Shown here piece by piece: positions 3,790-25,803 of a DNA stretch of 27,215 bases. The DNA lies in the IMG/VR virus record IMGVR_UViG_3300045838_000034, positions 1 through 27,215 of that record. The stretch is one strand, 5' to 3'. Within the stretch, counting starts at the first letter, position 1. The number at the start of each line of letters is the position of its first letter. Position numbers and translations under genes: made by a program. The notes below the pieces were generated by a model. The model was not told the origin of the DNA, ran no database searches, and worked only from the letters and a program-made list of their open reading frames with translations. This stretch comes from a virus (lineage: Duplodnaviria; Caudoviricetes).

Positions 3790-4368
3790 TCAGGCAGGCA
3801 GGCGGATCGAGCACGGCACCTCATCGCCCCAGACATCCCAGCCAAGCCGCTGCCGCCGCGCGAACAACTCTAGGCGCGGCCCCTCGCTCACCTGCTCGAT
3901 GAGGTCAAGGAAGGCCTCTGGCTTCACGCTGTGGGCGCGGGTGCGCTTCCACTGGAACCACGTGCTAGGGACGCGCCGCTTGTGGGGCATGCGTCCACGC
4001 CTGCCCAGCAGCGCGAACTCTGTCGTGGGCGTGAACAGGCCGCCCTGCCCCGTGCCGCGTGGCGTCTTGCACCAGACGAGGGTCTGACAGTACCGAAAGC
4101 CCCACGCCTCCAGCACGCCAAAGGCGGCCGGCAGAAACCGCTGTGTGGTCCACAAGTACAGATCACAGTCTTCGGCGGCCATCCGGGCCACGGGCAAGGC
4201 CGCGATCTGGCGCACGCTCAGCTGCTCATAGGGCATCGGGAACGACGCCGCCCACTGTCCTTTGGGAAACTTGCGTCGAGCCGCGGGCGTGTCGCTGGCG
4301 CCGTCCCAGTCGCGGCGGTAGGGCCAAGGCGGATCGGCGACGATGGTACGATAGCCACTCCTGTCCAT
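3790..4368 (-). CDS. MT-A70 family (N6-adenine) methyltransferase
   Basis: IVADPPW, LYLWTT, AWGFRY, WCK, TEFALLG, HSVKP and RLELFAR...GWDVWGDE: full MT-A70 motif set. Confidence 0.92.
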   Translation of the reverse strand: MDRSGYRTIVADPPWPYRRDWDGASDTPAARRKFPKGQWAASFPMPYEQLSVRQIAALPVARMAAEDCDLYLWTTQRFLPAAFGVLEAWGFRYCQTLVWCKTPRGTGQGGLFTPTTEFALLGRRGRMPHKRRVPSTWFQWKRTRAHSVKPEAFLDLIEQVSEGPRLELFARRQRLGWDVWGDEVPCSIRLPA

Positions 4369-4609: not shown

Positions 4610-5044
4610 TCAGACGACGAGCTGCAACCGTGGCTGCACACGCGCACATCTCGCCTGAGCCAGACGCAGATAATCGGGCTGCAAGTCAATGCCGATGGCC
4701 CGCCGGCCCTCCTCCAGCGCCACCATGAGCGTGGTCCCGCTCCCAGCAAAGCAATCGAGGACCGTGGCCGGCACGATGGGGGCGTCTGGGCCGCAGGAGC
4801 AGGTGGGCTGCCAGCCAGTCGTGCTCACAGACACGCCGGCCACGCCATTCGGCATCTTGGTGAACCCGTCATGCCGGCCGCCGCGGTCCCGCTCGCGTGC
4901 ATCTCCATCCGGGCGAGGCCGTGCCAGCGCCAGGCGATCCACCACCCGCCGCCATGGCGCCCCACACTGCACCGCGACCTCCTCGAAATACTGTCGTAGC
5001 TCGGCCGGGATGTCCTTGGGGTCAAAGAGTTGGTCCCCGCACAC
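4610..5044 (-). CDS. C-terminal half of split beta-class DNA methyltransferase A (SAM-binding motif I)
   Basis: CGAPWRRVV...TTGWQPTCSC...VLDCFAGSGTT...GRRAIGIDL. Likely start GTG 5044 with GGAAGGGG RBS 9 nt upstream; the frame is closed upstream by a stop at 5303-5305. Confidence 0.8.
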   Translation of the reverse strand: MCGDQLFDPKDIPAELRQYFEEVAVQCGAPWRRVVDRLALARPRPDGDARERDRGGRHDGFTKMPNGVAGVSVSTTGWQPTCSCGPDAPIVPATVLDCFAGSGTTLMVALEEGRRAIGIDLQPDYLRLAQARCARVQPRLQLVV

Positions 5045-6029
5045 CGTGCAGTGCCCCTTCCCTGGTATCGTGGGACGCGCTATAAGAGAGGCGTGAAAGC
5101 CTGCGCCCACTGCGGTGCGCTCTTTCAGCCCGCGCGCAAGCACCCCAAGCAAAAGTACTGCGGCGCAGCCTGCCGCGATGCGGCCAGAGTCACGCATGTG
5201 ACGCAGCCGTGTAGCGAATGCGGCCGGCCTGTGACGCGCATGAGGAGTCGTGCCCAACAACTGGAGCACGCCTACTGTCGCGCGGCTTGCCGATCTGCCT
5301 GGCTAGGCGCGCACCGTCGCGGGCCAGCGCACAAGCAGTGGACGCGTGTCAGCATCCTGTGTGATGCCTGTGGCGCCCTACTGTGGCGGCAACCAGCAAA
5401 GATCCGCCAGCACAACTTCTGCGGGCCAGCGTGCCGCACGCGGTGGCAGCAAGAGTCCGGCTATACGTCCGGTGCACTGAGCGCCGCGTGGCGCGGAGGC
5501 GCATCACACTATCGCGGGCCGAACTGGCGGCAACAACGCCATCTGTGCTTGCGACGCGATGGGGGTGCCTGCCAGCGTTGCGGTGCGGCCACGTGCGTGG
5601 ACGTGCATCACCGCCGGCCCTCTCAGACGTTCACCTCGCACCTGGAAGCCAATGACCTGTGCACCCTAATCACGCTCTGCACGAGGTGCCACACGCTGGC
5701 TGACGGGGCGTATCGCCGCGCGCATCCCGATGATCCGCGCTTGGTCCCAGCGTGTGAGCGCGTGCACGTGTGCGAGAATTGCGGCGAGCCGTTCATCGCA
5801 CGCGGCCCACGTGCGAAGCGCTGCGACCGCTGTTGGCAGCGCGTCTGCCTGACGTGCGGCAAGATATTCCGTCCGGCGGCATGGCGCGAGGTGGGGCACT
5901 ACTGCTCGCGCGCCTGTGCTGGTACGCCGACTAAGAGGCCAGCCCGCGCCGTCTCAGATAACCCATAACCCTGGCCTGCGCCTCAGGCGTCAGGTCACTG
6001 CGCAGCCTGAGCTTCTTGACCATCGCGCC
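4973..6029. mobile_element. Inferred HNH endonuclease insertion splitting MTase A inside a CxxC motif
   Basis: Removing 4973-6029 in silico restores AGTSEHGVC-VQ-CGAPWRRVV; the interval is filled by the antisense HNH gene. Boundaries uncertain by a few codons. Confidence 0.65.
5093..5968 (+). CDS. HNH endonuclease with multiple CxxC...CxxxC zinc fingers
   Basis: GTG 5093 with GAGAGG RBS; three N-terminal fingers, WRGG...RGPNW...RDGGACQRCG...VDVHH...NDLCTLITLCTRCH core, two C-terminal fingers. TG-G-TATCGT (5063-5071) and TATAAG (5081-5086) upstream. Confidence 0.85.
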   Translation: MKACAHCGALFQPARKHPKQKYCGAACRDAARVTHVTQPCSECGRPVTRMRSRAQQLEHAYCRAACRSAWLGAHRRGPAHKQWTRVSILCDACGALLWRQPAKIRQHNFCGPACRTRWQQESGYTSGALSAAWRGGASHYRGPNWRQQRHLCLRRDGGACQRCGAATCVDVHHRRPSQTFTSHLEANDLCTLITLCTRCHTLADGAYRRAHPDDPRLVPACERVHVCENCGEPFIARGPRAKRCDRCWQRVCLTCGKIFRPAAWREVGHYCSRACAGTPTKRPARAVSDNP

Positions 6030-7904
6030 GCATACCCCATGCTCAGAAGTGCCGGCACGGATCATGGGCCGCACCAGCTCGGGCGGGAAGGCAGCGTAGT
6101 GTTCCACCATGTCCAAGCCGTATTTCTTCGAGGACAGAGGGGCGGTGGCGACGGTCCAGACGGAGCGGGCATTGCGACCGGCGGGGTGCTGACCACCGCT
6201 GAAGCGGGAGGCGTCGCCCGCATGCTGGACGACCAGATGCTTGCCCTGCGTGCGGTAGCGCAGCGCCTCTGTGGTGAACTTGTGCAGGCTGCTGGCGTGT
6301 GGCTCCCTGATCGCGTCCTGGTCGTAGTAGTATCTCGGGCGCCTGGCCAGCATGAACACCGTCTCGTGCGCCCGCGTGCAGCGGTCTTTGACCGACTCGG
6401 GCATGGGATTGGGCTTCGAGTTGGCGGTGAGCACGCCCGAGGCCAGGGCGAACAGGTGTGGCTCATCGGCCACACCGACGTGCCAGAACTGGCGAGCCCT
6501 GGATCGCCGGATGGCCACAACCGTGGCGCGGTCCTTCTCGCTGTGATGGCCTGAGCGCGTCCAGCGCAGCTCACCTCGATAGATGGGCCAGCGCTTGCCC
6601 CATGCCGCCGTACTCGTGGCCTGGAGCGTTAAGGTTGCGCCCAAGCGCGCAGCGAGGGTGCGCAGATCAGCGGCGAGGGCATCGTTGCGCGTGAAGGCAA
6701 GGCGCCAGCGGTCGTTGGCCACGTCCCTGCTGCCATCGCCGGCCAGGTAGCCATCGAGCAAGGCGCGCAAGAAGTCGTCAGAGCGATCCCAGCATGCCGG
6801 CTTGAGGTGCTTCGTGCGGGCCGAGGAGCCGCCCACGTAGGCGTTGACGACGGCATAAGGGATACCGCCCTCAACCTGTATGCTGGCCGCATTGCCACGC
6901 CCGACGTGCGCCCAGACGGTACCATGATACGCCTCGGCGAAGCGCTGGAGCGCCGGCAAGCGATAGACCGTCTGATCGCGATGACCGGCAAAGCGCATGT
7001 GCCTGAACCGGTTGCGGCTTCCTTCAGCCAGATACAAGCCGCAGACCCAGCCGACGAGGCGGTCATCAAGTGCTTCGGGGCTTGCTGCCGCGGGCTCGGG
7101 CAACCGGCACGTCTGCAAGACATCGCCGACGCGTAGGTCGTCGGCCCGCACGAGGCCGCGCTGCGTCGGCCACTGGTGATGGCCGGTACAGCCGATGCGC
7201 TCACCACTGCGCAGCTCTATCTCAAGCGCGCCTTCGCGGTCTTCAGCGCGAGACCAGCCCAGCACCTGCGTCCAGCACTCGCCGGTCCAAAGTTGGACTG
7301 TCTCCGGCCGCAAGCGGACGAGATCCTTGAGCGTGATGGGCATCTCGCCCTTTTGTGTCTTGGCGTAGACGCGGGTGCCACCGGATAGGCACCAGATAAT
7401 CTCCGACCGCACGATCCAACCAGCTTCCTGTAGCGCAAACGCTACTTTCCACGGTGCGCCCAGGAGCTGCTTGTCAGGGCCGAAGCCATCGCCAAGAACC
7501 AGCCAAAGAGTCCCATCGTCTCTGAGAACTCTTTTGACTTGGCCGAAGACCTCTACTAGTATTCTAACATAGTCGTCAAGAGTCTTCTCATGCCCTATCT
7601 GACCGTCCGCTTGGTAGTCGCGAAGATTCCAATATGGAGGACTCGTACAACAGCAGTGCACGCTGTGCTCAGGCAACGTCGCAAGAACCTGCCGTGCGTC
7701 GCCGCAGAGCAGCCGCAGAGCGTCGTCGCAGATGGCCGTGCTCCTCCGAGAACGAGGGTCTGCTGTGCGCCGGGCCGGGGCAGGGACCGCCGGCCGGGCG
7801 CGCGGGGCGGCCCTCGCCGACCACGCCACCGCGCGCTCCAGCGGACGGCTGAGGAGGGACACGCGCCGCACGCGCACCCCCAAGAGGAGGAGCCGCCGCG
7901 GCAT
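5931..7904 (-). CDS. N-terminal half of split beta-class (N4C/N6A, SPPY) DNA methyltransferase A, intein-containing; true start probably near 7733
   Basis: GDARQVL...TSPPYW...GTLWLVLGD...IIW/SKPNPMPES...HETVFML...RSVW...HYAAFPPEL; lacks motif I (FxGxG), which lies in 4610..5044. Confidence 0.88.
   Translation of the reverse strand: MPRRLLLLGVRVRRVSLLSRPLERAVAWSARAAPRARPAVPAPARRTADPRSRRSTAICDDALRLLCGDARQVLATLPEHSVHCCCTSPPYWNLRDYQADGQIGHEKTLDDYVRILVEVFGQVKRVLRDDGTLWLVLGDGFGPDKQLLGAPWKVAFALQEAGWIVRSEIIWCLSGGTRVYAKTQKGEMPITLKDLVRLRPETVQLWTGECWTQVLGWSRAEDREGALEIELRSGERIGCTGHHQWPTQRGLVRADDLRVGDVLQTCRLPEPAAASPEALDDRLVGWVCGLYLAEGSRNRFRHMRFAGHRDQTVYRLPALQRFAEAYHGTVWAHVGRGNAASIQVEGGIPYAVVNAYVGGSSARTKHLKPACWDRSDDFLRALLDGYLAGDGSRDVANDRWRLAFTRNDALAADLRTLAARLGATLTLQATSTAAWGKRWPIYRGELRWTRSGHHSEKDRATVVAIRRSRARQFWHVGVADEPHLFALASGVLTANSKPNPMPESVKDRCTRAHETVFMLARRPRYYYDQDAIREPHASSLHKFTTEALRYRTQGKHLVVQHAGDASRFSGGQHPAGRNARSVWTVATAPLSSKKYGLDMVEHYAAFPPELVRPMIRAGTSEHGVCGAMVKKLRLRSDLTPEAQARVMGYLRRRGLAS
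6420..7391 (-). mobile_element. Intein with LAGLIDADG homing endonuclease (324 aa)
   Basis: Starts CLSGGTRV after IIW; block B CTGHH; LAGLIDADG motifs GLYLAEGS and DGYLAGDGS; ends LASGVLTAN followed by +1 Ser; removal restores IIW-SKPNPMPES. Confidence 0.92.
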
Positions 7905-14397: not shown

Positions 14398-16440
14398 TCA
14401 GACTCCCGCCTCCTGGTTGGCCGCGGCGAAGAGCGGCCCCGTCTGCTGCTCCTGCTCATAGGCCACGCGCCGGCGTGCGATCTCGACGTAGCTCTCTTGG
14501 GCATCGATGCCAATGAAGTGCATCTGCTCACGCACGCACGCGACGAGGGTGCTGCCAGAGCCGCAAAATGGATCAAGAATAGTGCCGCCAGGCGCACAAA
14601 CGAGACGGGCAAGCCAGCACATGAGGGTGAGTGGCTTCACGCACGGATGGCTATTTTGCCGCGGTGGCGACGGGTTGCGCGGATAGCCGCCATCGGGATG
14701 TCGTGCATCCTCGATCCACTCAGAGGCGATGAGGTTGCGCGTTGTCTGGTCCGGGCAGGGCATCCCGTCCAGGCCCCTGTTGCGCTCAGCCCTGCTCGCC
14801 TTGGGGCAGTACATCCAGGGCACGGCGTCCTCAGGGTCTGGGGCGAAGGTGGGAAAGTAGCGGCTTGGCCCGCCCTCATCCCCATAACCACCCGCAGACG
14901 CTGAGACTTGCTGCCGCCCGGCCGTATACATCCCCTGCCCGCCCCACGTGGCTGTGCGTCGGATCATAGCCGTGCCGCCCGTGCTCGTGCGCGGTCCCGC
15001 TTGCTCATCCAACAGACGAATTGGGCAGGAGGGGTCACAGGAGTAGGCTGGCACCTCTTCGTAGCCATCGGCGTCGGCGAGTTGGATGCTGCGCTCGCCA
15101 TTGCGGCCGGCACTCTGGCCGAAGGTGCGATCATCTTTGCCGTTGGGGAACACAGGTTGAGGGACGGGCTTGCTGCCCCGCACCCGGCGCGTGCCCTGCG
15201 GCACACAGCGCTCTGTGTGGCTCAGCAGCGTGTTTGGGGGCCATCTGCCCGCCCCTGAGCCGCTGACCGTCGCCCCCTCTGTCAGGCGTTCCTTCCAGGG
15301 CCGTTCTTCCGCGGCAAAGCTACTGGTAGCAGAGACAGTGCGCGTCCAGGCCCCTTCGCCCGTGGGCACCCGGCACGCATCAATCTGCAAGGGCTGCAAG
15401 GGGCCGGGGGCTTTGGCCAGCCACCATATTTCGTGGGCGGGACCGTCAGATGAAACGCCCTCCCGTCCGTTCGCGGCCCTCTGCGACGTGCTGTCCGTTG
15501 CGCCGAGCGAACCCGCTTGCGCGATAGCACTCCTTGGAGCAGAAAGTGTTTGGATGGCGCTCCACTTCAACGATGCGGCGATCAACAGGCTGTCCACAGC
15601 ACAGACAAGCGACCGTTGTCCATCGTGCCCTGACACGGCCTGGATGATGCTGTCTGGTGTGATTTGCGATAGCGAGGAGTTCAAGGTTTTCAAGTCTGTT
15701 ATCAGACTTGATGCCATTTCGATGGTGGACGTGCTCATTGCTTCGCAAAGGCCGTCCCAGGTGCTCCTCCATGACGACACGATGTTCAAGCTTGTACGTT
15801 CGGCGGTCGGTTGCGATTGCAACGTATCCGCTTGCAAGTTGGTAACGCTTTGCCACAGCCCCTCCTCAAGCTCGCCAATCCTCATACTTATTATAGCATG
15901 GAGGTCTGGCATACTCAAGGGATTCTGTGCGCACCACCACGTTTCATGTGCGGGCTTAAGACAAGACTTACTTTTCGGAAATCCCGATCCGAAGAGGTGG
16001 AGGTAGCGAGAAGAGCCTTTGAGGTGGCTAATCTCGTCCCTAATCTCCCAGCCGGCCTCTTCCAGTGCCAGCGCTGTCCAATGGCTGGTGCGCGGGAGAG
16101 CCCAGACGAGGGCATAGCCGCCCGGCTTGATGACACGGCGGCACTCCGCGAAGATCTCAGCCAGTCCGGCAATGAACGTGTCCCGTGCCCTGCGGCCAGA
16201 GTCGATGTGCATGCCGTTGGCAAAGCCGCGCTCGTGGGCGTGGGCGGTCTGCTGACTGTTGCCGGGCACGCCGCGCAAGGGGCCGCGGTCACGCAATGGG
16301 AAGGCTTGGGGCCGGTCCCAGTCTTTCCCCATGAAGGCGATGCCGGCCGGCGGATCTGTGAGCAGAGCGTCACAGGAGGCCGTGGGAATGTCCTTGAGCA
16401 CGAGCGCGGCATCACCGCACAGCACCACGTCACGCTCCAC
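14398..16440 (-). CDS. Beta-class DNA methyltransferase B (DPPA motif IV) with 171-codon in-frame insertion
   Basis: [55 protein letters not shown] motifs; GAGGTG RBS. Confidence 0.9.
15446..15856 (-). CDS. HNH endonuclease (136 aa) nested in an alternative frame inside MTase B
   Basis: GYV...[37 protein letters not shown]...H intact HNH motif plus C-terminal CxCCG...FCSKEC finger; GAGGAGG RBS before GTG. Confidence 0.9.
15890..15918 (-). promoter_or_regulatory. Consensus sigma-70-type promoter for the nested HNH gene
   Basis: TTGAGT (15918-15913), 17-nt spacer, TG-C-TATAAT (TATAAT at 15895-15890), 33 nt upstream of the HNH start. Confidence 0.8.
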
Positions 16441-24305: not shown

Positions 24306-24425
24306 TCAACTCCTTTCCGGCACGAGCTCGGTGACCTCCAGGCGCACGGCGCGCTCCGGCCCGGTCTCCTGCCGCACCACTAACTCCACGTGCTCCGCGT
24401 CATCGTCAGCTAGGTTAAGACCGTC
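24306..24425 (-). pseudogene. Stranded original 3' end of rusA
   Basis: DGLNLADDDAEHVELVVRQETGPERAVRLEVTELVPERS aligns without gaps from LA onward to the RusA tail LAEESSAYCDVQVHQEQGKERAIRVEVCELL; no start of its own. Confidence 0.75.
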
Positions 24426-25267
24426 TCCCAGTTGGGGATAAGAGCCCTCCACCTGGCAATGGCCTTGTAAGCGTCCTCGTCGATGACGACAATGCGCACC
24501 TGCGGATAGTAGCGCGCCATGCGCGCAAGCGCGGTCTTGCCGCGCGGATGGTGCCATCCCTTTACCTCCCAGTAGTACGGCTCGGAGCCGGGCCGCTCAG
24601 TAATGCGAAAATCCGGCGTATACGAGCGCACACCGCGCTTGATCTCCTCGAACCAGAAGGTCTCTGCCTCGTAAGCCCACTCAGCGATGTCGCCGCGCTC
24701 CTTCAACCAGTTGAGGTAACGGGCGATGTTGGCTTCCCAGGATGAGCGGAAGTACATGTTGCCCAGATCGGGCCGCCGACCGCCGCGGCTGCGACTGTGC
24801 GCGCTGCGCAGGCGTGGATCGGTGAGGTGCCGCTGGCTCATCAAATCGCTCTTCCCCTGCACAAAACCCGGATCGGCATACAGACAAGCGCGTGAGCAAT
24901 GCAACGTCGCCGCTGCATGACTGCGCTTGACGAGGAGCAGCGCGCCACAAGTACGGCAAGCAACCTGCACTCTCTTGGCGCGTGCAGCCAATGAACACGC
25001 CCTGGAACAATGGGCCGCTCTCGCACGCGCCGTGGTGACGACCCACGTGCAGCCGCAGGTTGGACAAACACGCGTGCCGCGGTCCTTGGGCTGCCTGGCC
25101 ACCCTCTCCTTCGAATCCCACGCACAGCGCCGTGAACAGTATTTGCGGCTGCTCGTGACGACGACCTGGAAGACGACAGCGCACTGCAAACAGGTCAGCG
25201 TCTTGCGCGGGAGGCTAAGCTTAGCCTTGACTTCAGGGGGGCAGGGAACGCCCTTAGGCCAGGGCAT
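24410..25267 (-). CDS. Zinc-finger PD-(D/E)XK endonuclease (homing-endonuclease-like)
   Basis: Likely ATG 25267 (AGGTG RBS); NUMOD3-like GVPCPPEVKAKLS, three CxxC...CSxxC fingers, FRSSWEAN...YTPDF...EVKG nuclease motif. Confidence 0.85.
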   Translation of the reverse strand: MPWPKGVPCPPEVKAKLSLPRKTLTCLQCAVVFQVVVTSSRKYCSRRCAWDSKERVARQPKDRGTRVCPTCGCTWVVTTARARAAHCSRACSLAARAKRVQVACRTCGALLLVKRSHAAATLHCSRACLYADPGFVQGKSDLMSQRHLTDPRLRSAHSRSRGGRRPDLGNMYFRSSWEANIARYLNWLKERGDIAEWAYEAETFWFEEIKRGVRSYTPDFRITERPGSEPYYWEVKGWHHPRGKTALARMARYYPQVRIVVIDEDAYKAIARWRALIPNWETVLT

Positions 25268-25392
25268 CGCGCACCTGCCCACGAGGCGACAAGATACAAT
25301 GGGGATGCATGCGGACCTCCAGCGTCCGTGTGCCGCGCCGGCGGATGTTCGCACCATCGCGCCGGCTACATCATAGAGGGCTGTGTGACGCC

Positions 25393-25422
25393 ATGGTAAC
25401 ATGGACACGTCCCTCATGTCTA
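25393..25422 (-). promoter_or_regulatory. Putative promoter of the PD-(D/E)XK gene
   Basis: TAGACA, 18-nt spacer, TG-T-TACCAT immediately after the rusA stop. Confidence 0.45.
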
Positions 25423-25425
25423 TCA

Positions 25426-25803
25426 CTACAGTAGCTCGCACACTTCAACGCGTATTGCTCGCTCCTTGCCTTGTTCTTGGTGTACTTGTACATCGCAATA
25501 AGCGCTAGACTCTTCGGCGAGAACACCGGCGTCCACCAATCCCAAGATCGGCCCCTTCGCCCTGCTGTACACATTGTCAGGGTCCAGGGGCGACTGCCCG
25601 CGCCGCCGCACAAGAGTCACGCTCACGTGCGCCCGCTCAAAGGGCGGCCCGCTGTGTTCCTGCTTTGCGAGCAGGGCGAACGCATCGCGGTAGACGGTGC
25701 GATCACGGGCCACGCGCGTCCAGTGCAGCCCCCGTGTCTGGTTGATGCCCAGGGGCTGTCCTCTGACTTCGAGCGTGTACTGGCGCGCCGGCCGCTCAGC
25801 CAC
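25426..25803 (-). CDS. rusA: RusA-like Holliday junction resolvase with recoded C-terminus
   Basis: PLGIN...HW, LDPDN, AK...GLVDAGVL and terminal IRVEVCEL motifs. Confidence 0.8.
   Translation of the reverse strand: MAERPARQYTLEVRGQPLGINQTRGLHWTRVARDRTVYRDAFALLAKQEHSGPPFERAHVSVTLVRRRGQSPLDPDNVYSRAKGPILGLVDAGVLAEESSAYCDVQVHQEQGKERAIRVEVCELL

Follow-up and report, generated by a model that had tools for sequence, protein, structure and literature searches.

A mobile cassette splits a phage DNA methyltransferase and brings a conserved pair of peptides that may join the separately made halves

How can an enzyme stay in use when a nuclease gene, a stop codon and a change of frame lie between the two halves of its gene? 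This question is raised by a DNA methyltransferase gene in the virus record IMGVR_UViG_3300045838_000034 (Caudoviricetes), of which we analysed one contig of 27,215 bases (positions 1 to 27,215, hereafter the window), identified as phage by its portal, terminase and major head genes. A first-pass annotation, made from the letters of this DNA, had noticed that the catalytic SPPY and the S-adenosylmethionine (SAM)-binding FAGSGTT lie in two open reading frames (ORFs) that differ in frame, that the break falls inside a CxxC motif at an antisense HNH gene, and that each half has gained a peptide. It proposed that the two peptides clasp the halves together around a shared zinc ion. The features that it described are all in place (Table 1), and we consider it reasonably probable that a mobile cassette split the methyltransferase and that its two peptides pair, holding separately made halves together as a working enzyme without splicing.

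The cassette occupies 1.06 kb inside the CxxC and consists of a basic peptide ending in a stop codon (the tail), an antisense HNH gene, and a ribosome-binding site followed by an acidic peptide (the head). The N-terminal part of the enzyme (N-half) reads up to GVC, continues into the 32-residue tail and ends at a TAG stop (5931-5933), after which the frame changes; the C-terminal part (C-half) opens with the head and returns to host sequence at CGAPW, the window's allele having neither a stop nor a hop after the head. The gene call in the protein collection (P0001) begins at the same GTG. The order of SPPY before FAGSGTT is that of beta-class N4/N6 methylases, PF01555 matches both halves, and the solved chains nearest to the AlphaFold2 model of the C-half are beta-class methylases, e.g. 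MboIIA, CcrM, PvuII and RsrI. Uninterrupted homologs read GxCxxCGxPW at the break point. The sequencing runs that match the window best are soil metagenomes and may be its source; the contigs of the probable source run are identical to the window over most of the stretch, both stops included, and are not independent of it. Runs X3, X5 and X8, with a small share of the window, yielded scattered pieces of it only. One contig of that run connects 4970 to 6049 via 21 different letters and looks like an uninterrupted relative from the same sample, of low depth and probably from another organism.

Searches with the C-half showed how the gene looks without the cassette: 11 of 12 loci are continuous methylases with neither tail nor head, ten of them reading GxCxxCG here (one locus from this query, L011, was set aside as a chance match). 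At the protein level, 10 of the 24 non-self matches to the C-half begin with the head, and a head profile collected 91 matches, 75 of which (the window's own included) carry the head at the N-terminus. These 75 are stand-alone C-halves of 81-240 amino acids (aa), none with SPPY, and the other 16 read through GxCxxCGxPW free of any peptide, so that tail and head are not ordinary parts of uninterrupted homologs. A metagenome scan with the head yielded 18 loci, of which 17 were genuine and 13 distinct. The tail lies upstream in 15 of these 17 loci, all split at the window's break point (site A) and all retrieved through the head alone, and the other two contigs stop short of it; tail and head therefore co-occur more often than expected by chance, and since the scan query did not include the tail, the way the loci were selected does not account for its conservation. 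Of the 17 loci, 15 carry a related antisense zinc-finger HNH gene, which is absent from L018 and reduced in L026 to a deleted remnant with a stop. Other sources gave less: site-A head and tail patterns and an HNH query found no confirmed relative among viral contigs, three of the four head matches in genome contigs were treated as chance (L014, L016, and L015, which shares the match of L014), as was the head match L034, the ESM Atlas gave no usable tail match, and profile searches of the PDB gave no convincing match, the best being to unrelated proteins (expect value (E) 0.007 for the tail, 0.13 for the head).

A tail profile run against 1.84 billion representative proteins gave 107 matches. 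We dropped 30 with three or more short matches (six that were inspected are unrelated repeat-rich proteins) and kept 77, several of which are proteins of the query loci themselves. Apart from three short fragments that could not be placed, all of these (74) are methyltransferase N-fragments ending in the tail, and they end at six break points: after GxC at site A (36 fragments), after KAxxxER at site C of a second subfamily (32), after RSVW (3), after PDC at site B (1), after the GDSY loop (1) and after SPPY (1). The expectation that tail and head would flank nuclease insertions elsewhere thus held for other break points; it failed for other genes, the 77 matches including no host other than N6/N4 DNA methyltransferases. 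In P0189 the N-terminal end resembles that of the L013 zinc-finger nuclease and the C-terminal end is a tail-bearing methyltransferase fragment, which suggests a further nested insertion or a fusion.

Both peptides are conserved as protein and not as RNA. In pairwise comparisons the proportions of nonsynonymous and synonymous differences (pN/pS) were 0.39/0.83 for the tail (12 site-A alleles) and 0.27/0.90 for the head (14 alleles), and identity at third codon positions was 0.38 and 0.32, respectively. All 28 peptides are free of in-frame stops, and shifting the frame abolishes the conservation signal. Charge is conserved as well: net charge lies between +1 and +7 in each of the 12 site-A tails and between -2 and -6 in each of the 14 heads. 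The complementarity first noticed between KKLRLR and YFEEV is general, with two divergent alleles in which the charges are exchanged. In L026 the tail of the site-B pair has a net charge of -5 with YLELR and the head contains LLKFFQKPKL, and in the divergent L132 pair the charges are shifted in the same direction. In L026 (1250-4639) two insertions, at sites B and A, leave one methyltransferase gene as three ORFs, and the charge polarity at one cut is the opposite of that at the other; head and tail of the middle piece are both basic, which in this one case would discourage self-pairing.

The peptides also outlast the nuclease and occur with two nuclease families. At site C, a Vsr-like nuclease lies between tail and head, antisense in L013 and L039 and sense in L132 (the name is read from a motif; PHROGs labels these HNH or endonuclease). 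Tail and head are retained with no nuclease in L018 and in all four mycobacteriophage records inspected, and with a deleted one in L026. All 85 phage records that match the site-C tail are mycobacteriophages; in the four inspected, the tail is followed by a short nuclease-free gap and the head, annotated as separate genes or missed. ShiLan gp65 ends in the tail, and cultured mycobacteriophages hold the nuclease-less allele as gp65, gp66 and gp67. In the nuclease-less site-C alleles (L035-L038, L040-L047, L049) the tail stop lies 60, 75 or 96 nucleotides (nt) from the head start, all multiples of three, which with three lengths only is possibly chance; in the 96-nt form a lone TGA separates tail and head within one frame.

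A tree of 27 split and 18 uninterrupted N-halves (188 columns; omitting L008, L011 and nine site-A proteins that were short or partial) rejects a single clade of split alleles (approximately unbiased (AU) test, p=0.0007), and the label split or uninterrupted changes 12 times on it, against a mean of 14.3 for shuffled labels.

In the site-C alleles, the head ORF stops at HPT followed by TAG, and after 2-4 further bases a different frame takes over with VKP, preceded by the codon ACC or GCC. A hairpin of differing sequence lies at the same place before the stop in five distinct alleles, with energies of -20.5 to -23.5 kcal/mol, compared with -9.7 +/- 3.7 kcal/mol (minimum -21.0) in 70 uninterrupted alleles. 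The junction is probably a short ribosome hop that resembles, over 5-7 nt, the bypass of T4 gene 60, the alternative being an internal restart as annotated for gp67.

The window's own nuclease gene matches phrog_1271 (E 3e-23) and no Pfam family, and its final 38 nt overlap the DNA encoding the tail. It retains HH and CxxCH but lacks the first 35-residue zinc-finger repeat, and it has Thr where 9 of 10 aligned nucleases (the window's and nine relatives) have Asn, by which it looks degenerate. Facing the nuclease, a sigma70-like score of at least 9 of 12 was found in 7 of 14 alleles, compared with 65 of 2800 control positions; the promoter-like site overlaps the head start, with the nuclease start codon about 6-8 nt past the -10 box (the L020 score is uninformative, as its start position was misplaced). 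The window's copy scores 6 of 12, and no consensus promoter was detected at the cassette when the window was scanned for promoters. Because of this low score and the missing repeat and Asn, the cassette of the window may be heading towards the nuclease-less state. A second 'GxC' just 5' of the head start was considered as a target duplication or hop landing site and rejected, because in the best-scoring alleles its TGTCAA is the reversed -35 box of the nuclease and its GG the ribosome-binding site, although an ancestral duplication may lie behind it.

Taken together, we propose that the nuclease would spread the cassette by homing into uninterrupted alleles and would be expressed from a divergent promoter near its start codon, and that translation of the C-half would begin at the ribosome-binding site in front of it, probably on the transcript of the N-half. 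The basic KKLRLR would pair with the acidic FEEV while the two helices pack on top, tail and head forming a small two-chain domain that replaces the two-residue turn of the CxxC. Cys625 would thereby be brought to Cys27 and the CxC/H, restoring the zinc site and the active site composed of SPPY and the SAM motif, and the homing cassette would neutralise its own insertion. The AlphaFold2 model of the C-half has a short head helix (residues 14-17; predicted local distance difference test (pLDDT) of the block 87) and a long beta-hairpin from Cys27 to CSC, with the SAM-binding elements after it. That of the N-half is poor overall (mean pLDDT 53) with a confident tail helix, predicted at residues 476-488 of P0026 with a pLDDT of about 90. 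As for the shared zinc, 61 of 75 C-halves have Cys at the second CxC position and 12 have His, as would be expected of a metal ligand, and this pattern makes a putative zinc site common to both chains (Cys625 with Cys27 and CxC/H of the C-half) plausible.

Several observations weigh against this proposal. Because the heads were chosen through a motif of their own, their conservation is inflated; one to three proteins each support four of the six break points, and a cognate head was observed at sites A, B and C only. Resolution of the tree is weak: 4 of its 42 branches are starred, and these force just 2 label changes; host-gene recombination could be another source of its mixed labels. Charge reversal comes from two alleles, with the homology of L132 judged by eye, and the nuclease and promoter of the window look decayed. 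Neither predicted pairing stretch is a strand when folded alone, which would fit peptides that need a partner without demonstrating one; a complex prediction of tail (35 aa, 35 rows) and head (33 aa, 70 rows) scored 0.28 against a mark of 0.32, with controls that did not fold, and carries no evidential weight. Furthermore, in Aeromonas phage Aeh1 the halves of a similarly split enzyme heterodimerise without their tails, which are required for higher-order assembly and activity (PMC3045599). Conserved complementary tails therefore need not clasp the halves directly, and of the clasp as first proposed it is the predictions at the sequence level that came true, direct contact between tail and head remaining the conjectural part.

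This last point leads to the main alternative, which we consider unlikely and yet the strongest competitor, namely that the zinc site and a large native interface suffice to join the halves, while the peptides cap the cut ends, stabilise the halves or support dimerisation. Beta-class methylases often dimerise, and a large native interface is to be expected here, as strands and helices of the core fold come from the C-half. The Aeh1 experiments agree: NrdA-a and NrdA-b from which the tails have been deleted still heterodimerise, but holoenzyme assembly and activity are lost (PMC3045599, restated in bioRxiv 2022.08.31.505936). What speaks for direct pairing instead is that the pair has been reused at break points around the fold, unexpected for a site-specific role in capping or dimerisation, and that charge reversal affects tail and head together.

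It is very improbable that the gene is dead or dying and that the peptides are by-products of the overlap, promoter and flanks of the nuclease gene. The tail does overlap the 3' end of the nuclease gene and the head start its promoter, phage methylases can be dispensable (PMC11855218), and the apparent decay of the window's nuclease would suit a dying locus; however, residues are kept in the host frame only, despite near-saturated synonymous sites and with no stop in any peptide, the core of the head is not covered by the nuclease ORF, tail and head persist where the nuclease is gone, and the catalytic and SAM motifs are intact.

Least probable of all is a covalent joining of the halves, whether by splicing of the RNA, by trans-splicing of the proteins through a split intein, or by ribosomes hopping over the cassette. 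Some inteins end in Gln-Cys, as the head of the window does, and site-C alleles of the same element probably contain a short hop. Nuclease genes between split-intein halves are also known (PMC2677866). Against this, the residue before the Cys of the C-half is Gln in 25, Thr in 17, Glu in 13, another in 20 and Asn in none of the 75 heads, the residue after the Cys of the N-half varies (S, G, P, N, A), excision of a Cys-to-Gln unit would remove a zinc ligand, the low third-position identity (0.32-0.38) speaks against a conserved RNA, the heads have their own start codon and Shine-Dalgarno-like site, and a fused tail-head protein was found neither among the 91 head-profile nor among the 77 tail-profile matches. 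Rfam at its gathering score gave no match in the window or four loci, which together with the selection at the protein level and the residues before the Cys makes intron and split-intein readings unlikely. A group I or II intron was thus rejected (no Rfam match in five sources, third-position identity), as was a split intein, the sole intein Pfam stretch (residues 224-310 of the N-half) lying inside a separate LAGLIDADG intein.

This intein has matches to PF14890 and PF14528 that are each below the cut-off (E 0.0018). Inteins usually carry a penultimate His, absent here: the insert terminates in Ala-Asn, while related inserts at the same position end in THN (L001, P0014), the one in L001 being an intein-like insert after the same IIW. 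Upstream, the true start of the N-half is probably nearer 7733 than the ATG at 7904; a strong GGAGGAG stands 7 nt 5' of an ATC codon (7731-7747, minus strand), near the starts of homologs, and initiation may occur at this non-standard codon.

Table 1. Features of the split methyltransferase locus (positions in the window, except for the last row)
Feature	Position	Strand	Basis or remark
Methyltransferase N-half	5931-7904	-	PF01555 E 6e-23; motif positions
Catalytic SPPY	7632-7643	-	N-half
LAGLIDADG intein, not part of the cassette; begins with Cys, ends in Ala-Asn, +1 residue Ser	6420-7391	-	junctions IIW/C and TAN/S
HYAAF motif	6087-6101	-	N-half
Cys625, first Cys of broken CxxC, final host residue of N-half	6030-6032	-	invariant in 36 site-A N-halves
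Basic tail, cassette-encoded: KKLRLR then helix; 32 aa + stop	5931-6029	-	conservation; pN/pS
Antisense zinc-finger HNH nuclease gene, possibly degenerate	5093-5968	+	PHROGs HNH families
Divergent control region: C-half ribosome-binding site (-), probable nuclease promoter (+)	5045-5092	.	sequence; sigma70-like score
C-half ribosome-binding site GGGAAGGGG	5054-5062	-	sequence
C-half start codon GTG	5042-5044	-	9 nt after GGGAAGGGG
Acidic head, cassette-encoded, 26 aa: FDPKDIPAELRQYFEEV	4967-5044	-	profile matches; pN/pS
Methyltransferase C-half	4610-5044	-	PF01555 E 4e-11; AlphaFold2 mean pLDDT 80
Cys27 of C-half	4964-4966	-	opens CGAPW
CSC	4793-4801	-	C-half
SAM motif FAGSGTT	4730-4750	-	C-half
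Site-C HPT/VKP junctions in other loci	L013:1590-1700, L035:3684-3790, L037:3013-3110, L039:3454-3560, L132:1438-1530		

The window contains three methyltransferase-type genes. An MT-A70 methyltransferase (3790-4368, minus strand) lies directly downstream of the split gene, and a second methyltransferase (14398-16440, minus strand) has an in-frame insert of 171 codons (about 15441-15954) between two PAHE motifs, within which an HNH_3 gene (15446-15856, E 1.5e-11) lies on the same strand in another frame, which makes it a hidden HNH of the ShiLan type. A zinc-finger protein is encoded at 24410-25441 (minus strand), its match to a TnsA-like nuclease being weak (E 0.08).

More tentatively, and with slightly more doubt than belief, we suggest that tail and head form a site-independent, self-assembling clasp, which would give homing nucleases a further way of residing within genes, the third after introns and inteins. 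Such a clasp would be insertable in different loops, would swap nucleases, and would have a nuclease-less mini form, charge-reversed versions that do not cross-react (in L026, a three-chain enzyme) and one branch with a miniature ribosome bypass; one pair at several break points, with different nucleases and reversed charges, is what a general intein-like strategy would look like. A true clasp would provide a natural heterodimer tag of about 55 residues, and the nuclease-less allele in cultured phages of Mycobacterium smegmatis makes the question testable. On a practical matter, many annotated 'methylase fragments' and tiny hypothetical genes (e.g. ShiLan gp66) would be parts of one enzyme.

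The concept of a split gene with added tails has already been published for two other phage genes, each using one site in one gene, and insert-borne tails have been proposed as a general alternative to splicing by Crona et al. (PMC3045599) and by Manning and Atkins. As in nrdA-a/mobE/nrdA-b of Aeh1, where an HNH gene splits the enzyme between active-site Cys residues, there appears to be no splicing, and a basic C-terminal and an acidic N-terminal tail, derived from the insertion, are added; in Aeh1 they are essential for activity and not for the heterodimer. Similar, too, is MobA in T4 genes 39/60 (Manning and Atkins, bioRxiv 10.1101/2022.08.31.505936), with conserved C-terminal and N-terminal extensions (CTE/NTE), a split through a metal-binding site, and repeated independent insertions; Vsr or GIY-YIG can take the place of the nuclease, which may also have been lost, with the peptides retained. 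Its bypass element after the head appears to be mirrored in our site-C alleles, and 10-nt bypasses are described in a Streptomyces phage terminase (PMC10732093). The present element is nevertheless not MobA or MobE proper, its host being a methyltransferase and the PDB searches giving no convincing match, with the published extension sequences not compared.

Two further groups of phage elements are related in layout. Fractured genes with split inteins (Dassa et al., PMC2677866) share the order of gene half, nuclease gene and gene half, have Vsr-like nucleases and are mostly from phages, but their intein halves are spliced, whereas the present peptides have no intein terminal residues. The ShiLan domain, or hidden HNH, is likewise inserted in phage DNA methylases with no intron or intein (PMC11855218, PMC9957025), but it keeps the host frame open; the cassette breaks it, and a hidden HNH was rejected for the split gene because of the stop at 5931-5933 and the frame change. 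The available portions of these two papers make no mention of the tail or of the gp66 and gp67 pieces, and a literature search mostly outside subscription journals, with figures and supplements excluded, found no description of the peptide pair in methylases or of the reuse of one pair at many sites.

The element therefore belongs with genes in pieces: a free-standing nuclease gene divides an ORF in two, uninterrupted homologs exist, the conserved extensions derive from the insert and survive nuclease loss, and the distribution is sporadic and homing-like (on the AU test, with a weakly resolved tree). Within that strategy MobE of Aeh1 uses one site in another host gene, and MobA uses one topoisomerase site with a CTE/NTE of about 44 aa, whereas here tail and head measure about 32 and 26 aa, most of the nuclease genes run antisense and the pair occurs at six break points. 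The cassette is real, conserved and mobile, and what distinguishes it from the known systems is that one pair of peptides is reused at many sites.

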